64,000 nucleotides of DNA from assembly GCA_027036135.1 (NCBI GenBank), contig JALVSY010000016.1, positions 352,001 through 416,000 of the forward strand, read 5' to 3'. Positions 2,254-50,052 of the stretch are shown piece after piece (position 1 is the first letter of the stretch; each line of letters starts with the position of its first letter). The notes beneath the pieces were generated by a model. That model was not told the DNA's origin. It ran no database searches and worked only from the letters and a program-made list of their open reading frames with translations. The stretch is from Pyrodictiaceae archaeon (lineage in GTDB: Archaea; Thermoproteota; Thermoprotei_A; Sulfolobales; Pyrodictiaceae). Position numbers and translations under genes: made by a program.

Positions 2254-3618
2254 ATGGATGGGCGTAGGATTGCTGCGCTAGTAGCGATAATAGTTATAGT
2301 AGTCGCTATAGGTGTTGGATTAGCTCTCTTTAAGCCTTGGGGCGGCAAGAAAGGGATAGTACTTAAGATAGTTACGAGGCTCTCGCCAGAAGAGCAGAAA
2401 GAAATCAGACAAGCATTCTTATCGAGCAAGATAGCTAAGGAATACCACATAAAGGATGTAGAGTTCACTAAGGTTGACTATAGCCTCTGGAAACAATTAG
2501 CGCTCAGTGGGAAAGTAGACCTATTCTTCATAGGAGAAAAGGTTGTCTATGATCGTCTCTGTAAGGAGGGCGCTTTCGTCCCCATAACAATGGATAAGCT
2601 CGTCAGCATAATTAATGGGCTTAAGCCCCAGTTTGTTGGGAGAGGTGCTAAGGGCAATATCTGCTGGGTAGCTGTGGGCCAAGCAGTCTATGGCTACATA
2701 GTAAACAATAACTTCTTGAAACAATATGGTTTACCAAAGCCGGTGAAGTGGGGCAGTCTCGAGAACCCTGTTTATCTCAAGCCCTTGCTCAGCCACGCCT
2801 ACACGGTATCCTTTCCGAGGCCCACGAAGAGCGGCACAGCTAGAACAACGATGCACGGTATACTACAGATATATGGCTGGGATGATGGATGGCGCCTACT
2901 AACAGTCATAGGAATGGAGGCTGGTATTGTCGATAGCTCTGAGAAGGCCAGAGACCAGGCAGCAGAGGGCATAGTGGGTGTGGCGCCAGCCTACATAGGC
3001 TATGGAATTGAGGCCGAAAAGGAGGGCAAGGGAGCAGTATTCGAGATACCAAGAGGCGAGGGAATAGCATATATCTCGCCAGTAGCGCTTGCAAAGAAGG
3101 CCCCTCACCCAAGAGAGGCTCAAGCCTTCATACTATGGTTACTGAGCCCTGACGGCCAGAGAACAATTGCCAAGCTCTTCTACTATTTGCCGGTGAGGAA
3201 CATTACCGGGATAAGTTGGGTCAGGGAAGTATATCAGAAAATGAAAGGAAACATATTCCAATACAACCGCACACTCGCGGAGAAAGTTGACCTAGCAGCA
3301 ACAACTTACTTCGAGGCAGCAATAGCTGATAGCGATGCCAACGCCCTGCTCAAGGAGATAGGACAGCTAGCCGCACAGCTAATGGAGAAGGGGAAGCTGA
3401 GCAAGAACCAGTGGCTCAGAATAGTTGAGCAACTAGCGCCCTTAACAATAAAGGATCCATGGACAGGTAAGCAAGTCAAGTTTACACTTGAGTACGCAGA
3501 GAAGATAAACAACAAGCTTCAGAACAATGCGGACCGGGACAAGTTCTACAACGCTGTCAAATCCGCTGCTATCAACACATATAAGAAGGTTCTAGAGGAG
3601 CTCAAGAGCATGAGCTAA
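2254..3618 (+). CDS. ABC transporter substrate-binding protein (Fe3+/thiamine-type, AfuA-like)
   Basis: N-terminal hydrophobic anchor, P..SGT motif, A..FI.WLLSPDGQ C-terminal motif; followed by a permease. Confidence 0.85.
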   Translation: MDGRRIAALVAIIVIVVAIGVGLALFKPWGGKKGIVLKIVTRLSPEEQKEIRQAFLSSKIAKEYHIKDVEFTKVDYSLWKQLALSGKVDLFFIGEKVVYDRLCKEGAFVPITMDKLVSIINGLKPQFVGRGAKGNICWVAVGQAVYGYIVNNNFLKQYGLPKPVKWGSLENPVYLKPLLSHAYTVSFPRPTKSGTARTTMHGILQIYGWDDGWRLLTVIGMEAGIVDSSEKARDQAAEGIVGVAPAYIGYGIEAEKEGKGAVFEIPRGEGIAYISPVALAKKAPHPREAQAFILWLLSPDGQRTIAKLFYYLPVRNITGISWVREVYQKMKGNIFQYNRTLAEKVDLAATTYFEAAIADSDANALLKEIGQLAAQLMEKGKLSKNQWLRIVEQLAPLTIKDPWTGKQVKFTLEYAEKINNKLQNNADRDKFYNAVKSAAINTYKKVLEELKSMS

Positions 3619-3628
3619 GGAAGTAGCG

Positions 3629-5380
3629 ATGAAGTCTAGTTCAGTGCTCAAACTAGTAGTCCCAGTATTAGCGGTCTACGCAATCGGTGTTTTTGCCCCG
3701 CTTCTAGCACTTCTGACCCCCAGTACACTGGCTAGGAGCATTCTCTCTGTCCTACACGAGCCTGGTTTCGCTAAACCAATTCTCCTCTACTCACCAGTAA
3801 CAATTATCCATGAAAGCCATACTAGGATGATCGTGCTTGATTTCCCCCTCATAGGCTCGCTTTGGCTTACACTACTAGTCGCACTCCTTGCGTCAATATC
3901 CTCGTTTCTGTTAGCGTATATAGTCCTAGTACCAGCTATACTATATAGACCTATTACACGCCTATCATTGCTTCTAGCCCTCATAGGGCTCCTACCATAC
4001 CCCTTCATAGAGGCCTACGTGGTACAACGAGTATTTGATCCGAGAATAGGCCTCGTCAATACATTATTGAGGAAACTCGGAGTAATCATTGTGGTCAAGG
4101 GGGCTATGGGTGTACTGATATACCAGGTACTAGTGTTTACTCCCGTGGCTTTTGTGATACTTCTTAGCTATGTATACTCGTTGCCTAGAGAGCAGCTAGA
4201 GGCCGCTCTACAACTAGGGGCTCGTGGAGCAAGCCTCGCTAGATTAATCTATAGGGCCGCTAAGCCAGCTATAGTAGCGAGCCTGTCACTAGTCTTCGTC
4301 CTAAGCATAGATGACGTAGCTGGTCCACTGGTATTCGAACAAGATCCGAGCGCCCGTAGCCTACTAGCCTATAAGGCTTACACGTACTTTCTCAACTCCG
4401 TCTATGGAGGCTTCTCCTATACAGCGCTTGGGCATGCAATAGTATTGCTCTTATTATCAGTGCTCGTATTCGCAATTAGCTATAGGAGTATAGCCGAGAC
4501 ATATCGCGGAATAACATCGGGGCGTGAGAGAGCCGGGCTCCTTCCCCGCCTAGACCGGGCCGGCGCGCTTAGCCTTGTAATAGTCATAGCTTTCCTAGGA
4601 CCATCGGCTTTCCTAAAAATCCTTTGCATAGCCTACGGATTCTCGTCAAAATGGGTTGCATCCCCCTTGCCGAGCCCTGGGCTCAACCAGCTTCGTCTTC
4701 TATCCTCGTCGCCAGATATACTCAGGGCTGTGCTGAACAGCTTCCTCTACACAATAGCATCTATTATCCTCGTACTTGCCCTCTTGTCGCCAGCAGCCTA
4801 CACTGTTGCACGGCGCCTAATTAGGGCAAGTGGCTTACTAGACGCCGCCATAATGTCAACAATAGCTATCCCCGGAATAGTGCTTGCCTATGCCTACTAC
4901 CAGTTCTTTACAAGTATCCTTGGCCCGGGCTCTCCTCTATCCCCTATAGGCGCGCCCTGGCTCTACTTAGTACTAGGCTACTCGGTTAGGAGGGCGCCAC
5001 TATACTACAAACCGTTATCAGCTCTAGTCTCCTCCCTGCCCGTGGAGTTAGAGGAGGCGGCAAAGAACCTGGGGGCCGGCATAGCAAGGATATATAGATC
5101 CATAGTGGCACCGATCATAATTAGGAGGGGGGTAGGAATAGCGGCATTTACCTCCCTTAGCATAGCATCAGAGGTAAGCCTATCAATAACAATAGGAGGG
5201 CTGGGAGGCTCTAGCGGGGCAAATCACCCAGCACCGCTGACGAACCTCGTAGCAAGCTACATAAGCTTTAGTGGCCTAGCCTATGCGGGTGCCTTGGCGC
5301 TTGCTCTGACACTGCTCTATGCTCTAGTCATCCCGGTCACTCTTATTATAGTCAAGCTAGTCTCCGCGCTCCATAGGTAA
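3629..5380 (+). CDS. ABC permease with duplicated TM domain (FbpB/ThiP-like)
   Basis: Two EAA loops (EAALQLGA, EEAAKNLGA) and many TM segments. Confidence 0.88.
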   Translation: MKSSSVLKLVVPVLAVYAIGVFAPLLALLTPSTLARSILSVLHEPGFAKPILLYSPVTIIHESHTRMIVLDFPLIGSLWLTLLVALLASISSFLLAYIVLVPAILYRPITRLSLLLALIGLLPYPFIEAYVVQRVFDPRIGLVNTLLRKLGVIIVVKGAMGVLIYQVLVFTPVAFVILLSYVYSLPREQLEAALQLGARGASLARLIYRAAKPAIVASLSLVFVLSIDDVAGPLVFEQDPSARSLLAYKAYTYFLNSVYGGFSYTALGHAIVLLLLSVLVFAISYRSIAETYRGITSGRERAGLLPRLDRAGALSLVIVIAFLGPSAFLKILCIAYGFSSKWVASPLPSPGLNQLRLLSSSPDILRAVLNSFLYTIASIILVLALLSPAAYTVARRLIRASGLLDAAIMSTIAIPGIVLAYAYYQFFTSILGPGSPLSPIGAPWLYLVLGYSVRRAPLYYKPLSALVSSLPVELEEAAKNLGAGIARIYRSIVAPIIIRRGVGIAAFTSLSIASEVSLSITIGGLGGSSGANHPAPLTNLVASYISFSGLAYAGALALALTLLYALVIPVTLIIVKLVSALHR

Positions 5381-6568
5381 TGCTATTAGCTCGCGCTGCC
5401 TCCACGCTCGCAGAGCCGTCTCAGCTACAGTCCATGGCTCAGATACACGTGGTGCTCTTGGCAGCTCGCCGCTCCACAAGCGCCTCATATAGTCCACAAC
5501 TGTGTTTCTCTCCAGCTCTTTCTCACTCCTCTCTGCTACTAGCTCCTTTGCGTAGAGGAGGGGCTTCGCCATCTTTGCGGGGAATCTCCAGAGATGCTGC
5601 TCCCTGAACGTCTTGTAGCTTGTCCAGCTATACCATTTTCTCCAAGTCTTCTCGAATACCTTCTCTATGAGCTCTGGGTCTTCTAGCTCGGGTACGTAGT
5701 GGAACTCGTAGAGTACGCGGTAAGGGCATAGGTCGCAAGCAACTCTCGGCGAGCCCTCCAAGTAGGCTGGGTGAATGAGTCCACTTTTCCTAACAATGCT
5801 TATTATGTCTAAGAGGCTGAGCACATAGGTTGGCCTAAACCTTCTACCAACAAGTATCACCCTCGCGGCGGCAGCCTTTGATAGCCTCTCAAAGCGTTTA
5901 GGGGACTCGGTAAGCCGGTCACCTACTACCTCAACAGCCCTTGGATCCTCCTTGAGGACTTTCCTCATAGGCTTCGCCTTATACATTGTGCAGTAGCGAT
6001 AGCCTCTTCGCGGCATACCCTTCCATTTAAGGAGAGCCTTCATATCCCTCCTAGGAGCCTCAACGAACTCTATCTCGACTCCAAGCTTCTCCGAGACTCT
6101 CTCAACGAACCTTACGCTACGCGGCGACTCGAGGAACGGGATATGAATATACATCACGTGCAAACGGAAATCAACGTATTCTTGAAGCTTAAGCAAGACA
6201 AGCAGGGCTGCAAGAGAATCCTTGCCACCACTAAAACCCAGGAGAACACGCCTACCACGAATCCCCCTACCAACAAGCCGCGCAAGCCACTCAGAATACT
6301 CATCCAAGCGCTCCACGACACGGGCATGGACATAGGGAGGAGCCATAACCCATGAACGAACCGGGGCAAACCCCTCGCCACCATCGCCGCGAACGATGAG
6401 CGAGCCACGCTTATCAAGCCATTCAGTAACGTCAACAGCACGGTCAACGCTAACCCATAGATAGTAGCGGCACCCCTCCCCACGCTTACAAATAAGCGTA
6501 GCATCACCACCACTACCAATAACGCCGACAAGCTCGCCTCTCTCAACCAATGGATACAGCTCAGTCAT
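5357..6568 (-). CDS. PAPS-reductase-family (PP-loop) protein
   Basis: SGGKDS PP-loop, RYCT..K and R.ACDLCP motifs; ATG at 6568 is the probable start. Confidence 0.85.
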   Translation of the reverse strand: MTELYPLVERGELVGVIGSGGDATLICKRGEGCRYYLWVSVDRAVDVTEWLDKRGSLIVRGDGGEGFAPVRSWVMAPPYVHARVVERLDEYSEWLARLVGRGIRGRRVLLGFSGGKDSLAALLVLLKLQEYVDFRLHVMYIHIPFLESPRSVRFVERVSEKLGVEIEFVEAPRRDMKALLKWKGMPRRGYRYCTMYKAKPMRKVLKEDPRAVEVVGDRLTESPKRFERLSKAAAARVILVGRRFRPTYVLSLLDIISIVRKSGLIHPAYLEGSPRVACDLCPYRVLYEFHYVPELEDPELIEKVFEKTWRKWYSWTSYKTFREQHLWRFPAKMAKPLLYAKELVAERSEKELERNTVVDYMRRLWSGELPRAPRVSEPWTVAETALRAWRQRELIALPMERGD

Positions 6569-6899
6569 AACCCCTATGCCCCGAAGAGTAAGCCGCTGGT
6601 CACCCTTATCCCATGCTGGCCTCCGACCTTTATGCTTCCTAATGGCCCCGCTGATCATAATCCAGGAACCAATGTACTAGAAAACAAGCTCTACATGCCT
6701 AGGTATGGCTCTTATTCCTCTACTAGGGAAGGGCTCAGATATGCAGGGGGCGGTCTCCTCACAACCCTGGCGCTCCACGGCGACTCAACCCCTCATCACA
6801 GCTTTAGCCAGATAACAAGGGATTAGAGAGAATAGGATATTATTTTTTAACTAAGGATTTACTATATTAAGTATTTTCTATAAAAAAAAATATGAGATT

Positions 6900-8111
6900 T
6901 TATTTAAATATATAGAGATGTCTTGGTTTTTCATCGGCTCCCAGCGGTAATGCAAGTATGCCGGCTAGTAGTAGCATAGGCCACTCGATGAACGCGCCAG
7001 CCAATATTAATACTTCCGAGGTGGCAGGGTGGTAATGCATTACATTGTGGGCTGCTAGGAATCCTGAGCCTATCAGTGTCATAAATCCCTCGGAATGCAG
7101 CCTAGCCAACTGGCCCAGTATTAGCAAATCGTATTTACTAGTGAAGCCAGCTATCAGTAATGCTATGCTCGCAACGATTGCAGCTGTAATGCTTCTTTTC
7201 TCTAAGGCTACTATTGAAGCGATAACAGGTACTATAAGGCCTATTACTACCTCTATACCCCAGAATATTGGTGCATGTGCTCCCCATAATAATTCTTTGT
7301 AATAATTCCATGTAGGTTTGTGATACCATGCTGCAACTATGTCCCAGAACATGAATAGCCAGAAGATTGGTAGAATTGTTAAGTACATTTTGCCTGCTAG
7401 GGAGGAATAGTAATCTTTGCGTTCTCTTAGCGTTCCTTTAAACCCCCTCACGATTGTTATGAATAGCCATTGGCCAGCCGCCCCTAATAGTACAGCGCTT
7501 GCCAAGAAGAATGCAACTAGGTGGGAACCGTACCATGCAGGCACTGAGACTAGTGAACCAAAGGCTTGGCTAAGATTACTGTCCAAGGCAATAGCTGATA
7601 CGAGGACTGCTATTGCTATTGCTAACTCTGCTTTCTTAATATTCTTAATAGTATCGATATCTGTCCTCCTAATAAGGTAGACAAGTTCTACTAGCAGCGT
7701 TATTGCCAAGAGCGTGTATAATACTAAATTCCACGCTATTCTTGATACGTCGTGGAATCCCCGTATGAGCCAGATTCCATGCTCCGGGTTAATTAAGTCA
7801 AGGAGTATTAATGTCCATGCAGGTACCAGGGATATTAAGGAAAAGTAGGTACTATACTTAATATCCTCTCTAAGCGTATTCGAGGAGCCCTTGTACCCAT
7901 ATATGGTAAAAATGCTATCGATAATGCTTGCCCCTACAGCTATTGAGGCGAAGAATACATAGCCGGGTACCAGTATCCCCCAAGGCATTGCTGATATATC
8001 TAGGCTCTCCTTAGCTGGAAGCCCTAATTTGATGCCATAGCCTAATAGCGCTAATGAGACTACTAAGAGAACTATAAATGCGATGAAGGCTCTAATACTC
8101 ATAGCACACAC
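6900..8111 (-). CDS. NrfD/PsrC-type membrane anchor subunit
   Basis: PWGILVPGYVFF, DL..P and S.IAWN motifs, multiple TM helices; lies after the Fe-S subunit. Confidence 0.88.
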   Translation of the reverse strand: MCAMSIRAFIAFIVLLVVSLALLGYGIKLGLPAKESLDISAMPWGILVPGYVFFASIAVGASIIDSIFTIYGYKGSSNTLREDIKYSTYFSLISLVPAWTLILLDLINPEHGIWLIRGFHDVSRIAWNLVLYTLLAITLLVELVYLIRRTDIDTIKNIKKAELAIAIAVLVSAIALDSNLSQAFGSLVSVPAWYGSHLVAFFLASAVLLGAAGQWLFITIVRGFKGTLRERKDYYSSLAGKMYLTILPIFWLFMFWDIVAAWYHKPTWNYYKELLWGAHAPIFWGIEVVIGLIVPVIASIVALEKRSITAAIVASIALLIAGFTSKYDLLILGQLARLHSEGFMTLIGSGFLAAHNVMHYHPATSEVLILAGAFIEWPMLLLAGILALPLGADEKPRHLYIFK

Positions 8112-42009: not shown

Positions 42010-42243
42010 GTTGTTACGGAGAAGTTGCTGAAGAGAATTGTTAGCGATCCATGAGTGATGGCTGGTAAACCACTTATCCGTGGTACAAGGATAACCGTTG
42101 ATATGATACTTGAGCTTCTTGCTTCGGGTATGAAGCCCGAAGAAATAGCTGAGGATTATGGTTTAAGTCTCGAGGACATTAAGGCGGCGCTGCTCTATGC
42201 TGCCAAGGTTCTCGGGAGAGAGGAGATAATAGTTGAAGCTTGA
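42010..42243 (+). pseudogene. DUF433 antitoxin with in-frame stop
   Basis: RIVSDP*VMAGKPLIRGTRI; TGA at 42052. Confidence 0.75.
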
Positions 42244-42609
42244 ACTTAGGTTGCTCCTTGACGAGAACATCGGGCTGAGAGTGTACCAAGAGCTTAGGAA
42301 ACAAGGGTACCACGTACAGTCAGTTCTTGCAGAACGTAGAGGAGCCTCTGACGAGGAGGTCGTTGAGATGGCTATTAGCCGTGGCAAAATAATAGTGACT
42401 ATGGCTAAGGATTTTTGGATATCTTGCTCAAGCATATAGGCCGCTCGGAGTAGTTATCCTAAGATTAAGAGACCCGAGGATACCTAATAGGCTTAAGGCC
42501 ATTCTAAGGGCACTCCGGCTCAAAGAACAACTATAGGGGCATATAACTATAGTAACTAACTATAGTAACCGACACGAAGATATGGAAACGACCAATCATG
42601 CCACAGTAG
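42233..42609 (+). pseudogene. DUF5615/Mut7-C PIN-like toxin, disrupted
   Basis: LLLDENI...DEEV...KDF(G); T5 frameshift at 42412, internal TAG and a 13-bp tandem duplication at 42544-42569. Confidence 0.8.
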
Positions 42610-43049: not shown

Positions 43050-43463
43050 TAGCCCCAAGAGGATTTGGAATAATAAAGGTAGTACTTATCGTTAGCCTTT
43101 TTGTACAGTACTGCATCCTTACAGTTCTTTTCTGGAGCTTATCTTCTACTCTTTTACATGCCTCCTTTACAAGGATTATAATACGCGAAGAAAAACCCCG
43201 GTATCAACGAGAACAGTCACCTTAGCCCTCACCGTAGAGTAGCCTGTCCACCTCTTCAGCGTTTGTCTCTTCTATGTCCCGTGCATAGCGTAGAGAGCCT
43301 AGAACAGTCTCCATGTCGCCTTGATGCTTTTCCAGGAACTCCTTCTCGGAACCTCTATAGCCCGTCTAAGGGTCTCGCTAAGACTCCACCCCATGAGCTT
43401 AGCTAGTCTCTCTAACCTCTTCTTATCCTCGATAGAGACCCTGATAGTCGTATACCTAGGCAT
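43050..43463 (-). pseudogene. Decayed VapBC pair
   Basis: MPRYTTIRVS..KKRL (RHH-like), frameshifted, ending VDRLLYGEG* at 43222; followed by PIN start MTVLVDTG with multiple lesions. Confidence 0.7.
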
Positions 43464-43674
43464 CGTGACCTCCTCGAGAAGTAGATATGTTCTCCTTTAA
43501 GAATAAACACTACTATCTATATACATGTCAGGGTAGTAGTACGACACGACCACAAAACGGTGAAAGCCACCTCCTTTCCCAGATACAACGACGTATCAAG
43601 CCAAGAGTAGCTATAGGTACCATATAGGCTTTACTATTAGATAATGCCGCTCCTTTGTTTTCTCAACTCTCGTT

Positions 43675-43932
43675 CTACGAGGTGTTATGCTGTAGTACTT
43701 TCTCCAGGTCGTTTCTGTGGAAGTAGTAATAGGTCTTGCCAGCGACTAGTACAAGCTCCCTGAACCCCGCTCGGAGAACCTCCTCTATGAACTCACGGGG
43801 CAAGTCCACCAAGACAACATCATTCCTATCTGTCTCAACATAGATGCTCTCCTCCCGGATATCGACGCGGAACCCTCTGGCCTCGAGCGACCTGGCTAGC
43901 TCGGCTAGCCTTTCTCGAGGAGTACTACTCAA
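43675..43932 (-). CDS. Hypothetical protein
   Basis: 85-aa ORF, GGAGG before TTG; divergent from the RiPP cluster. Confidence 0.65.
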   Translation of the reverse strand: MSSTPRERLAELARSLEARGFRVDIREESIYVETDRNDVVLVDLPREFIEEVLRAGFRELVLVAGKTYYYFHRNDLEKVLQHNTS

Positions 43933-44017
43933 TGTTTCCGAGCCTCCAGTTGCTTACTGTTTACTATTTATAAAAATATGAAGCGAAGTATAATTTATTA
44001 TTCCTTATCCTTGTAAT

Positions 44018-44260
44018 TATATAATATATTAAATGGTGTGATATTTCGATTCTATAGAAACATATTATTTTATTAACAAATATATTGTATTTCTTATGAT
44101 TGCGTTTTAGCCTTATAGTGAAGTAGTAAACACACCTCTAACATTGTTTGCTGAATTCTCTTATACAACTCTTTTTATTGGTACTCTTTTCTATACTAGA
44201 GTGGTCTCTTATATATGTTTCTATAGAATCGAAATATCACACCATTTAATATATTATATA
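44018..44260. repeat. Perfect 48-bp inverted repeat with 147-bp spacer
   Basis: 44018-44065 (TATATAATATATTAAATGGTGTGATATTTCGATTCTATAGAAACATAT) is the exact reverse complement of 44213-44260. Confidence 0.97.
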
Positions 44261-44272
44261 CATATCTACTAT

Positions 44273-44297
44273 CGCTCTTCTTCTAACGAAGAAAGCG
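44273..44297 (+). promoter_or_regulatory. Hairpin/dyad just upstream of the precursor ribosome-binding site
   Basis: CGCT-c-TTCTTC-taac-GAAGAA-AGCG. Confidence 0.45.
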
Positions 44298-44312
44298 GCT
44301 GAGGGATGTGTA

Positions 44313-44417
44313 ATGAAGGTCTTAAAAACCGAATATAAAAATCCCCAAATTCTAAAAGGAATGGAATTGTGTAGTGGAAAAGGAATTATATGTGGTGGTA
44401 ACGCAAGCGTCTACTAA
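44313..44417 (+). CDS. Putative RiPP precursor peptide (34 aa)
   Basis: MKVLKTEYKNPQILKGMELCSGKGIICGGNASVY*; GAGGGA ribosome-binding site; ends 23 bp before the radical SAM gene; too short for the ORF track. Confidence 0.8.
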   Translation: MKVLKTEYKNPQILKGMELCSGKGIICGGNASVY

Positions 44418-44440
44418 GAAGGTTAGAGAGGTGTGGCAGA

Positions 44441-45928
44441 ATGGCAAACCAATCCATTCTTTTTTCTTCAATAAAATATGTGGTTCATGTACCTTCTCTA
44501 CAGATACAGAAAATGCTTGATCCACAAGTTTTTAAGAAAGAGGTCTCTTTTATTTTCCATCCGTATTCTATGTCGTTTATAGAGGCTTCGTTACAAGAAG
44601 CTGAGATAATTAAACTTCTCGAGGAAGGTGTACCTCTTAATAAAATTAAAGAATTATATGGTGCCGATTCTTTAAGAGTAATTAATGAAGTTGAAGAAAT
44701 AATTAAGGATCTTTATCCCAAAGAAATCATTAAATTTAACAAGCCAACAGTACTATGGTTACTTACATCGCCGTTTTGTAATTTAAGATGCCGCTATTGT
44801 TATACTGCTTCTGGCTCTGCCTTTTGGTCGTCTTCAAGAATATTAAATATTGATGAACTCGTTAAAGCGGTTGAGAAAATACTTGATGCTTTTCCAACAA
44901 TAAAACATATCGCTTTCTTTGGAGGAGGAGAGCCATTATTAAGGCTAGATATTATTAAAGTAATAACTGAAAAATTTGAAAATAATATAGAGATATTCTC
45001 TATTACTACTAATGGTACATTAATTAATAATGATATTATTGAGTTTATAGAAAACTATAAAAATAAGTTTATATTAACTTTGAGTATTGATGGTCCAAGG
45101 ATAGTTAACGACATTAATAGAATATATCCTGACGGTAGAGGCACTTTTAACGATATAGTAAAGGGCATAGAATTGCTAAAAGAGCATGGGCTCATGTTTG
45201 ATATACAGGCGACGTATACAAGAGAAGCTTTCATGTTAGGGTATTCAATGAGCGATATAGCATATTTCCTGAGTAGATTTTCTCCGTATATAATGCTTAG
45301 ACCTTCTGATTACGTTGCAACTCTAGGTGCTGGTGAAAGATTTGAGGATGCTATGTTAGGTTTCATGCTTGCTGATTATGTAGATAAATCAATAATGGAA
45401 ATGCTCAAAAGGGATCCCACATATTATGACCTTGTCATAGCCATGAATATCGCGCAAATTGGTAGACGAGTAATTAAACTCCAGGCTTGTCCGTATACAA
45501 GCTTTATAACCCTTAACGCTGATGGCAGAATTTATACTTGTCATATGTTGACAGATTTTGTTATAGGAAATATTTTAAAAACGTCTAAAAAGGATATTAA
45601 AGAAAAATATGAAAAAGCATTAAAGATTCTAGACATATATACTCAGAAGCTTGACCCTCGCCTTTTCTGGATGCTTACGATGCAAGATATATGTCCAGCA
45701 GAGCTTTATGGCGGGCTAAGCTATGTAAGTAAGGGTGGAAATAAGAAACTCGGCCTTAGACCGTATATAAGGTCCGTCTTAGAGAACTATTGGGACGCCT
45801 TACTTGTTAAAATTTTCAGCTCTGCACGCAATGGAGACCTAGATAGGCTATATGAAAACGTCGGCAAGATGCTTATGGCACGGCGGCAAGGAAGAGAGGG
45901 ATTAAGCCGACTGGTGAATGCATATTGA
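44441..45928 (+). CDS. Radical SAM peptide maturase candidate (anSME/SPASM-Twitch type)
   Basis: CNLRCRYC, FFGGGEPLL, TTNGTL, LSIDG..N...R; CPY...ADGRIYTCH..IGNI auxiliary domain; ~100-aa N-terminal extension. Confidence 0.88.
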   Translation: MANQSILFSSIKYVVHVPSLQIQKMLDPQVFKKEVSFIFHPYSMSFIEASLQEAEIIKLLEEGVPLNKIKELYGADSLRVINEVEEIIKDLYPKEIIKFNKPTVLWLLTSPFCNLRCRYCYTASGSAFWSSSRILNIDELVKAVEKILDAFPTIKHIAFFGGGEPLLRLDIIKVITEKFENNIEIFSITTNGTLINNDIIEFIENYKNKFILTLSIDGPRIVNDINRIYPDGRGTFNDIVKGIELLKEHGLMFDIQATYTREAFMLGYSMSDIAYFLSRFSPYIMLRPSDYVATLGAGERFEDAMLGFMLADYVDKSIMEMLKRDPTYYDLVIAMNIAQIGRRVIKLQACPYTSFITLNADGRIYTCHMLTDFVIGNILKTSKKDIKEKYEKALKILDIYTQKLDPRLFWMLTMQDICPAELYGGLSYVSKGGNKKLGLRPYIRSVLENYWDALLVKIFSSARNGDLDRLYENVGKMLMARRQGREGLSRLVNAY

Positions 45929-47640
45929 GGAATATGGGAAGACGTTATGTTAAATACGTACTGGGCTTTGCGTACCGGGTTACGCGGAGATACTCGTTAC
46001 TCGTTAGCCTAGTGGCGCTTGTTGTTTGGATTGTTTTGCTCCTTGTCTTCTTCTACTACACACTTGTTATGAAGGGCTTCATAGACTACCTCGTGTCCCT
46101 CCTCCAGGCTACTAGGACTAGCTGGTTCTATGGAATCCTTCGCTACGCTGCTATCTTGCTCGGGTTATGGGGCCTGAAGTATGGCTTGAATATTCTTGGA
46201 GAGTACTCGTTGAGGCTTACTGGCTTAGCGGCTCTAGAGGGCTTGGCTACCGAGTTTATTAGGAGCCTTGCCTGGGCTAGGCCGAGCAAGCTCCCCGAGA
46301 GAGGTGATATTGTTGGCCGCTTCATGTCTGATCTTAGCCGTGTATCGGAGCTGGGAGGTTTTCTTGCCTCCCTTGGAGTCCAGGTAGCTAGGATAGTTAT
46401 TGGCTCGGTGCTCCTCTATGTTCTCAGCCCAGTTCTCTTCGCGGTCACCTTGGTAATTGTGCCGATCTATTATGTTGTGTTCAGGGTTAGTAGTGGGAAG
46501 CTAGCAGCTGTCTCCGAGAAGGAGAGACGAGCCTTCTCGAAATTATCGATGGTTTTCCGGGAGTTTGTTGAGGGTATTCTCCACGTGAAGACTCTGTCTC
46601 GTATGCGTAGTTATCTTGGCTCGGTTTCGGAGAGGAATGTTCGCTCGTGGGGGTCTAGGCTCCGTAGCGTGTTCTTCTACGATGTGTTCTTTAACCAGAG
46701 CTTTAATAGCCTATACGACATAGTGAGGCTAGTTGTGCTGATAATCGGCGGCTTCCTGGTAGCGAGGGGCGAGACAACTATTGGCAGCGTAATAGCGTTC
46801 ACGAATGCTGTCTACAACGTATTCGAGCCAATAGCGAACATATCGTACTCCTTCGCAGCCCTCGGCGAGCTCTATCCCTATGTGAAGAGAGTTGAGGAGA
46901 TACTAAGACTAGAACCTGAGCGCGATACTGGTGAGAAACTAGGCCGTGTAGACAGCATTGAGGCACGCGATGTCGTGGTAGAGGTGGATGATCACGTACT
47001 ACTCAATGGGGCATCGCTGACCGTGAAGAGAGGCCGCATATACGCGGTTATGGGGTCCACGGGGGCCGGGAAGACGACGCTTCTCCTAACTCTTATCAGG
47101 CTCTATGAACCCGGCAAGGGAGTGATAAGGATAAATGGTCGCGATTATCGTGTCTATAGTGTTTCCTCTCTCCGCGAGAAAATAATCTACTTGCCTCAGC
47201 AGCCCCTCGTGCTCCGAGCAAGTATTAGAGACAACATAGCTCTCGGCGAGCCCTTGCCAGACGATGCAATTTGGCGTGCACTAAGACTAGCAGCCGTGGA
47301 CTTCGTCACGAGCCTAGACGAGGTCGTGGACCCATCGAAGCTGAGTGACGGGCAGAAGCAGAGACTGGCACTAGCCCGGGCCCTAGCCCATAGCCCGGAG
47401 GTGTTGCTCCTGGATGAGGCGTTGAACGCTGTGGATGAGCAGACAGAGGCGCGTATACTAGCGAGCCTGCGCAACGAGGTGGCAAGTGATAGGCTGGGGG
47501 CAGTAGTGATTGTAACGCATCGCTCAGCAACACTGAGTAGCGTTGACCATGTATACGTGTTGGAGAATGGAAGGGTGATGTGTGAGGGGGAGCCGCGAGG
47601 AGTGCTCGGAAAATGCAATAGGGCAGCGCTGCATGTGTAG
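45925..47640 (+). CDS. ABC exporter (fused TMD + NBD)
   Basis: TM domain, GSTGAGKTT, LSDGQKQR, LLLDE, VTHR; start overlaps the radical SAM stop (TTGA). Confidence 0.92.
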   Translation: MRNMGRRYVKYVLGFAYRVTRRYSLLVSLVALVVWIVLLLVFFYYTLVMKGFIDYLVSLLQATRTSWFYGILRYAAILLGLWGLKYGLNILGEYSLRLTGLAALEGLATEFIRSLAWARPSKLPERGDIVGRFMSDLSRVSELGGFLASLGVQVARIVIGSVLLYVLSPVLFAVTLVIVPIYYVVFRVSSGKLAAVSEKERRAFSKLSMVFREFVEGILHVKTLSRMRSYLGSVSERNVRSWGSRLRSVFFYDVFFNQSFNSLYDIVRLVVLIIGGFLVARGETTIGSVIAFTNAVYNVFEPIANISYSFAALGELYPYVKRVEEILRLEPERDTGEKLGRVDSIEARDVVVEVDDHVLLNGASLTVKRGRIYAVMGSTGAGKTTLLLTLIRLYEPGKGVIRINGRDYRVYSVSSLREKIIYLPQQPLVLRASIRDNIALGEPLPDDAIWRALRLAAVDFVTSLDEVVDPSKLSDGQKQRLALARALAHSPEVLLLDEALNAVDEQTEARILASLRNEVASDRLGAVVIVTHRSATLSSVDHVYVLENGRVMCEGEPRGVLGKCNRAALHV

Positions 47641-47667
47641 TACTGTGCTGAGCGGAAGCAGTAATGC

Positions 47668-48486
47668 TTATCTCGTCTTCGGCTTTATGACTAGCTTGTC
47701 GCTTATCCCTACTCCTAGCTTCTCGGCTGCGCTGCCAAGGTTTATTGCTAGCTCGGGGAACCCTAGGCTATTAGTGTAGAATACTAGCTCGCCTGGCGAA
47801 GCGGCACTGAACACTGGCAGGCACTTGGCCTCGAACCTGCCAGTACTTGTGATTACTTCTACCCTGCTGCCTCCCTTGCTGCATAGTTTCTCTATGCACT
47901 CTTCCTCTAGGCCTAGTGCAACGTTGCCGAAATGATCTATGTAGACAGCCTCTGCCTCAACCTCCTCGCCTCTACAAGGCTTTCTAAGGCTCAGCTTGAC
48001 TAGCTCGTCCCTGGGCAGCTCGTGGCCCAGCGAGGTTATTGGTGTGCCTAGTGCTAGGAGGGTCGCTGCGGGCGCGAACACGTCTCTTCCATGGAAGCTC
48101 CTTGAAACGGGTTTGAGGAATACCGCCTCATTATCAATCACGTGTGCTCTTTCTATCCCGTCGCTGCTAGCTGCTGGGTAAAGCACACCGTTATCCGGCC
48201 CGACGAAGTAATAGTTCCTAGTAGCAATGGCTACTGCTTTACGCTCAGTACCTACCCCGGGATCCACGACGACAAGGAAAACAGTGCCTCGTGGAAAGTA
48301 CTTGTAGCTCGTATAGAGCACATAGGCCCCAGCTACAATGCTGAAGGCTGGCACATCGTGAGTAATATCAACTACGCGTACTCTCCCCCTACCAATGCGC
48401 TCAATAACAGCCCTTACTATCCCCACGTAGGGGTCACGCCACCCAAAATCAGTCATGAAGCCGATTAGCGGCTGTGGATTAATCAC
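47668..48486 (-). CDS. SAM hydroxide adenosyltransferase (DUF62, chlorinase/fluorinase family)
   Basis: TDFG..DPYVG, DITH, VVDPGVG, GPDNG, SFHGRDVFAP, IDHFGN. Confidence 0.93.
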   Translation of the reverse strand: MINPQPLIGFMTDFGWRDPYVGIVRAVIERIGRGRVRVVDITHDVPAFSIVAGAYVLYTSYKYFPRGTVFLVVVDPGVGTERKAVAIATRNYYFVGPDNGVLYPAASSDGIERAHVIDNEAVFLKPVSRSFHGRDVFAPAATLLALGTPITSLGHELPRDELVKLSLRKPCRGEEVEAEAVYIDHFGNVALGLEEECIEKLCSKGGSRVEVITSTGRFEAKCLPVFSAASPGELVFYTNSLGFPELAINLGSAAEKLGVGISDKLVIKPKTR

Positions 48487-49422: not shown

Positions 49423-49587
49423 ATGCCTAGCAGTGCTGTAAGACTGCGACTATCTAAAAACGCCATGGAAAAACTCTTTGGTTCCAGAAAAGCCGGCATA
49501 TCAAAAGGTATCGAGAGAGTTCTTGAAAAGTACTCAGAGAAAGTCGAAGATGATATGTTAAAGGAGTTTCTCAAGGAGAGGAGGTAG
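49423..49587 (+). CDS. Putative VapB antitoxin (54 aa)
   Basis: MPSSAVRLRLSK...MLKEFLKERR*, 9 bp upstream of the PIN gene. Confidence 0.6.
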   Translation: MPSSAVRLRLSKNAMEKLFGSRKAGISKGIERVLEKYSEKVEDDMLKEFLKERR

Positions 49588-49596
49588 CCTAGATCA

Positions 49597-50052
49597 ATGA
49601 ACTTGGTGATCGATGTATCGGTTTTTATTGATAGGCTATTCATCTATGACGAAGAACGTAGCCTTAGAGCACGTACCTTATTCAGACTAGTTGATGATAG
49701 AGGTTTAAACATCTTTGAACCTCCGGTATTTGGCATAGAGCTTGCTTCACAGCTTGTCCGAAGAAAACCTCGAAGCCTGGCAGAAGAATTGTATAACGAG
49801 ATAATAGACAGAGTCGTCATCATAGACGACATAGATTATGACCTTCTCCTAGATATTGCTTTGTCTACTGCTTGCAGAGCTATAGATACATACTATATAG
49901 CTGTTGCCCACATGTTCTCCGGCATACTAGTCAGCGCCGATAAAATAATGATTAATAACGCGAGAAAATATGGAGTAGAAGCATACTACATACACGACAT
50001 AAATGATTATAGCTCATTAATATCAAGAATTAGCCAGGATACAAGATGGTAA
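49597..50052 (+). CDS. vapC: VapC PIN-domain toxin
   Basis: VIDVSV, E, DTYYIA, LVSAD motifs. Confidence 0.88.
   Translation: MNLVIDVSVFIDRLFIYDEERSLRARTLFRLVDDRGLNIFEPPVFGIELASQLVRRKPRSLAEELYNEIIDRVVIIDDIDYDLLLDIALSTACRAIDTYYIAVAHMFSGILVSADKIMINNARKYGVEAYYIHDINDYSSLISRISQDTRW

Follow-up and report, generated by a model that had tools for sequence, protein, structure and literature searches.

We report that a 64,000-nucleotide stretch of DNA from a Pyrodictiaceae archaeon (contig JALVSY010000016.1; this whole stretch is below called the window, and coordinates are counted from its first letter) carries three genes with the layout of a cassette for a RiPP (ribosomally synthesised, post-translationally modified peptide). 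Specifically, a short open reading frame (ORF) for a candidate precursor peptide is followed, in the same direction, by a gene for a radical S-adenosylmethionine (SAM) enzyme (rSAM) and by a gene for a half-size ATP-binding cassette (ABC) exporter composed of a transmembrane and a nucleotide-binding domain (TMD-NBD; Table 1). The stop codon of the peptide ORF and the rSAM start are 23 bp apart, and the TTG with which the ABC gene starts overlaps the rSAM stop codon, TGA (..ATATTGAGG..), with an alternative ATG 9 nt further on. Purine-rich boxes resembling Shine-Dalgarno sequences precede the first two genes: GAGGGA ends 7 nt 5' of the peptide ATG and GAGGTG ends 8 nt 5' of the rSAM ATG. A first-pass annotation, made from the sequence alone, had described this order with the 23 bp gap, the stop/start overlap and a ribosome-binding site of the peptide ORF's own, and both the ORFs with their coordinates and the box in front of the peptide gene were recovered here.

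Table 1 Features of the candidate peptide cassette (window coordinates unless a locus is named)
Feature	Position	Strand	Basis
Candidate precursor-peptide gene, 34 aa, MKVLKTEYKNPQILKGMELCSGKGIICGGNASVY	44313..44417	+	ORF call; homologous ORFs adjoin rSAM orthologues in G175 and G367
Putative radical SAM peptide maturase gene, 495 aa	44441..45928	+	Pfam PF04055
RRE-like domain of the enzyme, residues ~35-95	44543..44725	+	Modelled secondary structure: E35-40, E45-50, H51-61, H66-73, H76-89
SAM-binding [4Fe-4S] cluster motif, C113-x3-C117-x2-C120	44777..44800	+	Invariant in 6/6 family members
Twitch-like auxiliary-cluster motif, C350-x11-G362-x4-C367, with C418 in W410-x7-C418	45488..45694	+	Alignment
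Half-size ABC exporter gene, TMD-NBD, 571 aa	45925..47640	+	Pfam ABC_membrane and ABC_tran
ABC motifs	Walker A 47053-47079; signature 47341-47364; Walker B 47404-47421	+	
Low-GC segment, ~2.0 kb (upstream region, peptide gene, rSAM gene, first ~10 ABC codons)	43936..45954		blastn break points 43935/43953 (left) and 45955 (right)
Perfect 48-nt inverted repeat, 147-nt spacer	44018..44260 (arms 44018-44065 and 44213-44260)		Arms 100% complementary
Decaying cassette copy	L112 (G566:C1:828089-832639) 3050-3500		

Two orthologous loci were read, one in a genome of the same order (G175) and one in a genome of another class (G367). In G175, where the rSAM protein is 36% identical to that of the window, a 35-aa ORF (MNIKYVETTYKNPEALVGIMLCSGFIGCGGKASPL) begins 142 bp upstream on the opposite strand (locus L096, 4275-4379), and in G367 (rSAM 31-35% identical) a divergent 33-aa ORF (MKTLRIVASPINTGEIPLGCCGVIICGGFRLKT) lies 117 bp upstream (locus L095, 7242-7343). 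The first-pass annotation had made its proposal depend on an upstream peptide being conserved at homologous loci, and such a peptide is present in both (2/2). The small ORF is thus more than a chance reading frame, because it is conserved beside the rSAM orthologue in each of the other loci. Residues G16, C20, G22, I25, C27, G28 and G29 are invariant in the three peptides, which have the core C-x-G-x(1-2)-I-x-C-G-G in common. For the window peptide, which has no Pfam family match, we infer a leader of residues ~1-19 and a core of residues 20-34 (C20-S-G-K-G-I-I-C27-G-G-N-A-S-V-Y). In all three loci a short precursor gene is conserved beside the presumed modifying enzyme and its conserved core is C-terminal, as in RiPP clusters.

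A search of six-frame translated G175 with the window peptide alone returned a single match, the G175 peptide ORF (E 1.7e-5, 60% identity). Moreover, a DNA pattern for CxGx(1-2)IxCGG occurs exactly once each in the window genome (G000), G175 and G367, always in the peptide ORF, and has 0 occurrences in the cassette-free genomes G004 and G009; the reversed pattern, used as control, gave 0, 0, 0, 2 and 0 matches in G000, G175, G367, G004 and G009, respectively. As judged from these counts, it is very unlikely that the only match in the G367 genome would fall by chance within 120 bp of the rSAM start. The YxxPx(L/I) motif to which the first-pass annotation had drawn attention is indeed present in the window (YKNPQI), while G175 has YKNPEA and G367 lacks it, and the motif is no conserved hallmark of this peptide family. 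A mycofactocin-like chemistry, considered since the window peptide ends in Val-Tyr, was rejected on account of the variable C-terminus (PL in G175, KT in G367). In the genus of G367 an ORF of 102-110 aa (MALY...; L095 7355-7663(-) and L113 3246-3578(-)) is a conserved neighbour on the peptide side and could encode a regulator.

In a congener of G367 (G566) the cassette is in a state of decay (Table 1). Its ABC gene is intact and 95% identical, and its rSAM gene has suffered an internal loss of 1,111 bp (corresponding to L095 5894-7004, most of the gene) such that only the two ends remain. In the peptide gene, which has acquired indels, the ATG, the reading frame and the Cys codons are gone, with flanks that are 87-94% identical. 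In a further genome, G656, the ABC gene lies beside the same neighbours with nothing in between. Of the genomic evidence for a joint function of peptide and enzyme, we regard their joint decay in G566, with the pump kept, as the strongest.

The enzyme belongs to the radical SAM superfamily (PF04055, 78.7 bits vs a cut-off of 29.5). In an alignment of six family members not only the SAM-cluster motif but also the GGEP motif (G162-G163-E164-P165) and C350, G362 and C367 are invariant (6/6). The whole protein has six Cys, i.e. the three of CxxxCxxC together with C350, C367 and C418, and all are in predicted cluster motifs. The SPASM model (PF13186) scored 18.2 bits, below its cut-off of 21.5; the CxxCx5CxxxC half is absent and only three Cys follow the core. 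A profile search of 1.84 billion representative proteins revealed a wider clade around the enzyme, in which the CxxCx4-6Cx2-3C motif is found in none of the 28 best-ranked representatives (0/28), appears first at P0147 and is usual among lower-ranked proteins. Because this second Cys motif is missing from the 28 best-ranked relatives, we place the enzyme next to the SCIFF-like maturases with canonical SPASM, in a branch of its own that is Twitch-only. The auxiliary domain is probably Twitch-like, with one auxiliary cluster on C350/C367/C418.

Among the NCBIfam models the best match was PapB (NF047865; 120.3 bits vs a cut-off of 340, E 1e-34, residues 105-392), and lower scores were obtained with CcpM (TIGR04068; 100.3 vs 500), anSME (TIGR03942; 90.3 vs 349.45) and the SCIFF maturase (TIGR03974; 87.3 vs 425). 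The peptide has no C/S-x-P-x-R motif. The label anSME/SPASM-type given in the first-pass annotation should thus be replaced, given the anSME and SPASM scores, by Twitch-only and CteB-like. The ESM Atlas gave generic rSAM and SCIFF-like clusters only, and no usable taxonomic lead. A 2.5 kb Woesearchaeota contig (L040) carries two Twitch-type rSAM genes in tandem (2-739 and 743-2068); these are distant relatives (profile E 1.7e-39) outside the close clade.

The AlphaFold model of the enzyme (predicted local distance difference test score, pLDDT, 75.8; predicted template modelling score, pTM, 0.80) has an N-terminal domain resembling a RiPP recognition element (RRE), an rSAM barrel, a Twitch hairpin and a helical C-terminal domain. 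The enzyme falls in the peptide-maturase class, the solved structures closest to it being CteB, TigE, ChlB, anSME, SkfB and SuiB. By sequence profile the best is CteB (5WGG/5WHY; E 5.6e-34), as compared to 9.3e-22 for TigE, and CteB is also the best Foldseek match (E 8e-13). VIA-align does not separate ChlB, anSME, CteB and TigE (all at Z 20-22; CteB, Z 20.8 over model residues 12-462), and across the N-terminal domain only CteB and TigE align. Thioether synthases have been sorted by six CteB active-site positions (F112, F152, T186, S210, H363 and Q364), according to the part of the source available (PMC10288494). The HMMER-aligned equivalents here are Y121, F160, T189, S215, H368 and M369, i.e. 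four of the six are identical and one is conservative in this uncalibrated comparison; anSME differs at positions 2, 3, 5 and 6.

The peptide and the enzyme were also modelled as a complex, which scored 0.75 vs 0.30 for the best control; the mark used was reached by 58/80 solved complexes and 2/110 mismatched pairs. Three runs share at least 48% of contacts (partner pLDDT 56). On the enzyme side residues 37-38, 44-49 and 80-94 touch the leader, while on the peptide side contacts involve residues 1-9, 11 and 13-19, mainly 1-9. Peptide residues 1-9 are modelled as a β-strand that pairs with the RRE-like strand 44-49 and packs with helix 80-94, residues 13-19 head for barrel residues 156, 185 and 285, and the core (20-34) is not confidently placed. 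The modelled docking resembles solved leader-RRE complexes and supports binding of the peptide to the enzyme, with the proviso that the pass may partly reflect likeness to known structures, since CteB-type complexes have already been solved.

The third gene encodes a TMD-NBD exporter, as the first-pass annotation had stated, with both Pfam domains above their cut-offs (ABC_membrane 53.4 bits vs 28; ABC_tran 101.8 bits vs 25). It does not have the architecture of a peptidase-containing ABC transporter, given that the TMD begins near residue 46 and no peptidase domain precedes it; alignment to the bacteriocin/NHLM export models TIGR03796 and TIGR01193 sets in only at their positions 152 and 252 (170 and 164 bits vs cut-offs of 853 and 524, respectively). 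In G175 and G367, too, a homologous exporter gene comes after the rSAM gene and its start overlaps the rSAM stop, which makes 3/3 loci from two classes. Identity to the window exporter is 94% in G001, 91% in G002, 74% in G004, 40% in G175 and 26% in G367, and the divergence between the window and G367 pumps about equals that of the enzymes. At E <= 1e-70 this ABC subtype was found in 4/41 relatives (the window genome included), all of one genus, and also in G175 beside the rSAM gene. A dedication of the exporter to the peptide is not supported: the close orthologues in three congeners (G001, G002 and G004) persist where the peptide gene and the rSAM orthologue are absent. The same applies to G566 and G656. 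With five genomes in which the ABC gene is kept by itself, its tie to the other two genes is not a strict one. Paralogous ABC genes with no rSAM gene or peptide alongside are present at G000:C30 and G002:C281; the former (L110, G000:C30:203500-211500, 4398-6044) encodes an exporter with 36% identity and has an upstream tRNA-like sequence, as judged from translations of the kind that tRNA genes give. In G004 a 273-aa ORF without Pfam match (L101, G004:C1, 638-1459) lies directly 5' of the ABC orthologue, where the window has its rSAM gene.

The guanine plus cytosine (GC) content is 34-35% in the peptide and rSAM genes, 52% in the ABC gene and 49% in the window. In G001 and G002 ~230 bp of unrelated DNA replaces the 2.0-kb low-GC segment of the window. 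Contigs of four runs (X1, X3, X4 and X6) from three studies span the rSAM-ABC junction and contigs of three (X1, X4 and X6) span the left junction. These are DNA contigs from runs labelled hydrothermal vent metagenomes, and since independent runs bridge the junctions neither the arrangement nor the odd composition is an assembly chimera. The labels, together with the name of a relative's protein ('Thermoprotei archaeon'), also fit the hyperthermophilic crenarchaeal host suggested earlier. One of the runs, X4, holds both forms, with some contigs joining 43934/5 to 45955. In G367 the rSAM gene has a GC content of 29.5% vs 60-63% in the flanks, and the low GC extends into the 5' third of the ABC gene: at L095 (G367:C1) 5300-7400 it drops from ~65% to 22% within the ABC ORF, with the same profile in G566 (L112), which suggests a recombination joint inside the G367 pump gene. 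Taken together, the loci may reflect an old three-gene unit from which the producer half is often lost and perhaps re-acquired; frequent loss is suggested by G566, where it is in progress, and re-acquisition by the GC contrast, and in the genus of the window the change may have run either way.

Orthologues of the rSAM protein are very rare. Only four close rSAM relatives were found among 5.8 billion proteins (60, 42, 39 and 35% identity), the next match having an E-value of only 1e-23, and no orthologue was found in 40 relatives (best E 3.5e-19). Orthologues occur in 2/351 genomes of the window's class (the window genome included), 2/401 genomes in a sample of the phylum and 1/120 genomes of the class of G367; none was detected in Halobacteriota (0/351 at E <= 1e-50), a result of little weight as it concerns a sample without positive control. 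Among the metagenome contigs of the Joint Genome Institute (JGI), alignment of the C-terminal part returned one locus, the 5,090-bp contig G175:C87 again. A scan of genome contigs with full-length alignment gave 80 loci of unrelated SPASM enzymes and no orthologue, the query motifs being generic for rSAM. No relative was found in viral contigs, and a tblastn search of plasmids gave 117 records, in each of which identity stays under 60% and coverage of the query below 80%. Neither search thus points to a virus or a plasmid as carrier.

The inverted repeat (Table 1) ends 53 nt 5' of the peptide start (fold z-score -12). Its right arm has a TATA-like box (TTTAATATA) facing the peptide gene, and in the left arm the same box faces a gene for an 85-aa protein (43675-43932, minus strand). 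The repeat is unique in the genome, and a miniature inverted-repeat transposable element (MITE) was therefore rejected. It might act as a switch, or be what was left behind when the peptide gene was re-oriented (see below). One X3 contig has the spacer in the other orientation (an 'opposite strands' joint, 44066/44213); this was not counted as an inversion because it may be an arbitrary path of the assembler through the repeat. An Rfam scan of 43600-48000 gave no match.

Of the eight neighbouring genes in the window that were scanned, one has the look of a truncation, the DUF5615 ORF (42233-42439), which spans positions 2-58 of a profile of 110, at variance with the earlier statement that most of the neighbouring accessory genes are pseudogenes. 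No cofactor-pathway genes were seen among these neighbours. Small genes of toxin-antitoxin type flank the cassette, at 42055-42439 (DUF433 and the truncated DUF5615/PIN-like ORF), 43299-43463 (ribbon-helix-helix) and 49423-50052 (a PIN-domain gene behind a 54-aa ORF). A gene for a SAM hydroxide adenosyltransferase (SAM_HAT_N and SAM_HAT_C; 47668-48486, minus strand) is convergent to the ABC gene and adjoins it in G002 too; this adjacency is probably coincidental because the two are 18 kb apart in G004.

The candidate RiPP system of precursor, rSAM maturase and exporter that the first-pass annotation had put forward is supported by every computational test available, and we consider it probable that the three genes form a RiPP-type cassette in which a peptide docked through its leader is modified by the rSAM enzyme, with a thioether as the most likely chemistry, and a pump exports the product or protects against it. 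That the enzyme modifies the 34-aa peptide is likely, slightly more so than the cassette reading as a whole. The specific assignment of the modification as a Cys thioether is more tentative, with the odds somewhat below even. In such a scheme, the leader (~residues 1-19) would dock as an added β-strand on the RRE-like domain and feed the C-terminal core into the rSAM barrel. The enzyme would bind SAM at the C113/C117/C120 cluster, and probably one auxiliary cluster on C350/C367/C418, with an open iron site like that of CteB. A 5'-deoxyadenosyl radical would then take a hydrogen from a core residue, and a Cys thiolate, probably on the open auxiliary-cluster iron, would capture the resulting radical to give a thioether (sactionine or ranthionine). 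There may be one or two rings, one per C-x-G unit; two such units (C20-S-G and C27-G-G) suggest two small rings. Finally, the translationally coupled ABC half-transporter would export the product or shield the cell from it. Cluster binding, crosslink type, leader removal, secretion and biological activity are here, like expression of the cassette, what we infer from genomes and models.

Several observations weigh against this interpretation. The DNA pattern for the core was written after inspection of the sequences, the G367 peptide included, and a single-sequence search of G367 with the window peptide misses the G367 peptide, the sole match there (E 0.94) being elsewhere; homology of the G367 peptide hence rests on core motif and position. 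In the window the peptide and rSAM genes point the same way, in G175 and G367 they diverge, and since the window differs from both other loci the peptide gene has been re-oriented in one lineage. The RRE-like domain (residues 1-100) has no PqqD or RRE match in Pfam, where at E <= 0.1 only a chance-level match to DUF3969 was obtained. C418 (in QDICPA) is aligned in only 4/6 family members, with the Cys of G367 a few residues further on and an Arg in P0003. None of the curated equivalog cut-offs in NCBIfam is reached, residues that could accept a thioether are not evident (only Ile25 is invariant besides Cys and Gly), the cassette has no protease and the exporter no peptidase domain, and the ABC gene is kept without the peptide and rSAM genes in five genomes.

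Some of these points lend themselves to other explanations. The same cassette and substrate might be combined with other chemistry, e.g. cyclopropanation or another change of Ile25, epimerisation or a C-C crosslink, with the Cys acting as cluster ligands or forming a disulfide. For this speak the fold match to TigE, which is on par with that to CteB (Z 20.5 vs 20.8), the agreement with TigE at active-site positions 1 to 4 (F, F, V/T, S), Ile25 as the sole invariant core residue other than Cys and Gly, and the failure of any curated thioether-maturase model to reach its cut-off. We nevertheless consider it unlikely: the two invariant Cys, each in a C-x-G unit, are the most conserved feature of the core, the sequence profile favours CteB over TigE, whose alignment ends before the Twitch region, H368 after the Twitch Cys agrees with H363 of CteB, and the window peptide has no repeats whereas the substrates of TigE and TvgB do. 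It is still less probable that the peptide is modified and then acts inside the cell, as a cofactor precursor or a metal-binding peptide, with the ABC gene simply resident at the site; the orthologous ABC genes without the other two and the sharp GC contrast (rSAM 35%, ABC 52%) would fit, but the overlapping rSAM-ABC pair is found in all three loci across two classes, the ABC subtype is rare (one genus among the relatives) and lies beside the rSAM gene in G175, and cofactor-pathway genes were not seen nearby. Least probable of all, and in our opinion hardly credible, is that the small ORF is no substrate but a conserved ORF with a regulatory or leader role, or one for a small subunit that partners the enzyme, and that the rSAM enzyme acts on something else. 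The inconstant orientation of the peptide gene could be explained in this way, yet conservation resides in the C-terminal Cys/Gly core and not in a structural fold, in the complex model the leader sits on the RRE-like domain much as leaders do in solved maturase-leader complexes, and the peptide decays alongside the enzyme in G566.

Returning to the leader-docked, thioether-forming cassette, a bolder extension is a new archaeal RiPP class, the work of a minimal Twitch-only CteB relative with six Cys, and a bacteriocin-like locus among hyperthermophilic vent archaea, in which a low-GC producer module is quickly gained and lost and the exporter is kept for resistance or immunity. This would explain the solitary ABC gene in five genomes, the mid-decay state of G566 and the two forms in run X4, but we regard it as speculative and rather unlikely. 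If it proves real, the pattern of a retained exporter and lost producer genes would offer an unusual look at how vent archaea compete or signal by means of peptides.

In the accessible part of PMC12144867, the validated archaeal RiPPs of earlier work are only two haloarchaeal lanthipeptides, and rSAM-type clusters are only predicted; such predictions, by genome mining across archaea, include the TACK (Thaumarchaeota, Aigarchaeota, Crenarchaeota and Korarchaeota) lineages, as far as the portions available of PMC12144867 and PMC13635244 go. No experimentally characterised rSAM RiPP from Thermoproteota was found in the literature searched. The existence of such a cassette is in itself unsurprising. 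No model matches the precursor family and no curated cut-off is attained by the enzyme, whose Twitch-only build with a helical tail is distinct. The locus is a good experimental target, i.e. a compact, testable three-gene candidate with a 15-residue core from an organism of very high temperature. With six Cys and one predicted auxiliary cluster the enzyme would be a natural minimal CteB and, for that reason, useful for probing the role of the second SPASM cluster.

Among known systems, anSME (4K36-4K39) matches the core and the Twitch/SPASM fold (Z 21-22), has no RRE-like domain and aligns from model residue ~101; near the cassette neither a sulfatase nor a C/S-x-P-x-R target was seen. The ranthisynthase PapB, with its substrate PapA (freyrasin), is the best NCBIfam match and yet far below the cut-off. 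PapA has Cx3D motifs, unlike the window core, which has no Asp or Glu. SkfB of Bacillus subtilis (6EFN), the sactisynthase acting on SkfA, is, as predicted for the window enzyme, an RRE-fused enzyme with a single-cluster Twitch domain and forms one Cys-to-Cα thioether in a small peptide. The structural match to SkfB (Z 14.9) is much weaker than that to CteB, with a profile E-value of 3e-10 over the core only, and the skf operon has additional maturation genes of a type not seen at the window locus. The cyclopropylglycine synthases TigE and TvgB (8VPO) match the fold over its full length, N-terminal domain included (model residues 5-463), while the sequence alignment with TigE is limited to profile positions 9-267. 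Their substrates are repeat peptides (e.g. TVGG, TIGSVS) in which Cys has no role.

The closest archaeal case found is CrpC of Methanococcus voltae, an rSAM enzyme with a predicted RRE and full SPASM that, as described in the available part of the source, introduces ranthionine crosslinks into CrpA, the Cys-rich product of a neighbouring gene (PMC13692751). According to the same part, CrpC has three clusters, acts on a large protein and comes from a methanogen (PMC13692751), in contrast to what is predicted for the window system, whose host belongs to Thermoproteota. The most similar system overall is CteB/CteA, the SCIFF-type ranthipeptide maturase and substrate of Clostridium thermocellum, for which the fold match is full-length and includes the leader-binding N-terminal domain, and H368, directly after the Twitch Cys, corresponds to H363 of CteB. 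In CteB three Cys ligate auxiliary cluster I, whose open iron site takes up a Cys of the substrate. The three auxiliary Cys of the window enzyme presumably occupy the ligand positions of this cluster in CteB and anSME, which we take as a lead from the structures. The SPASM domain of CteB is complete and holds two auxiliary clusters, whereas in the window enzyme the CxxCx5C part is absent with helices in its place, and the CteB substrate has six Cys in ~45 aa as compared to two Cys in the 34-aa peptide of this archaeal host.

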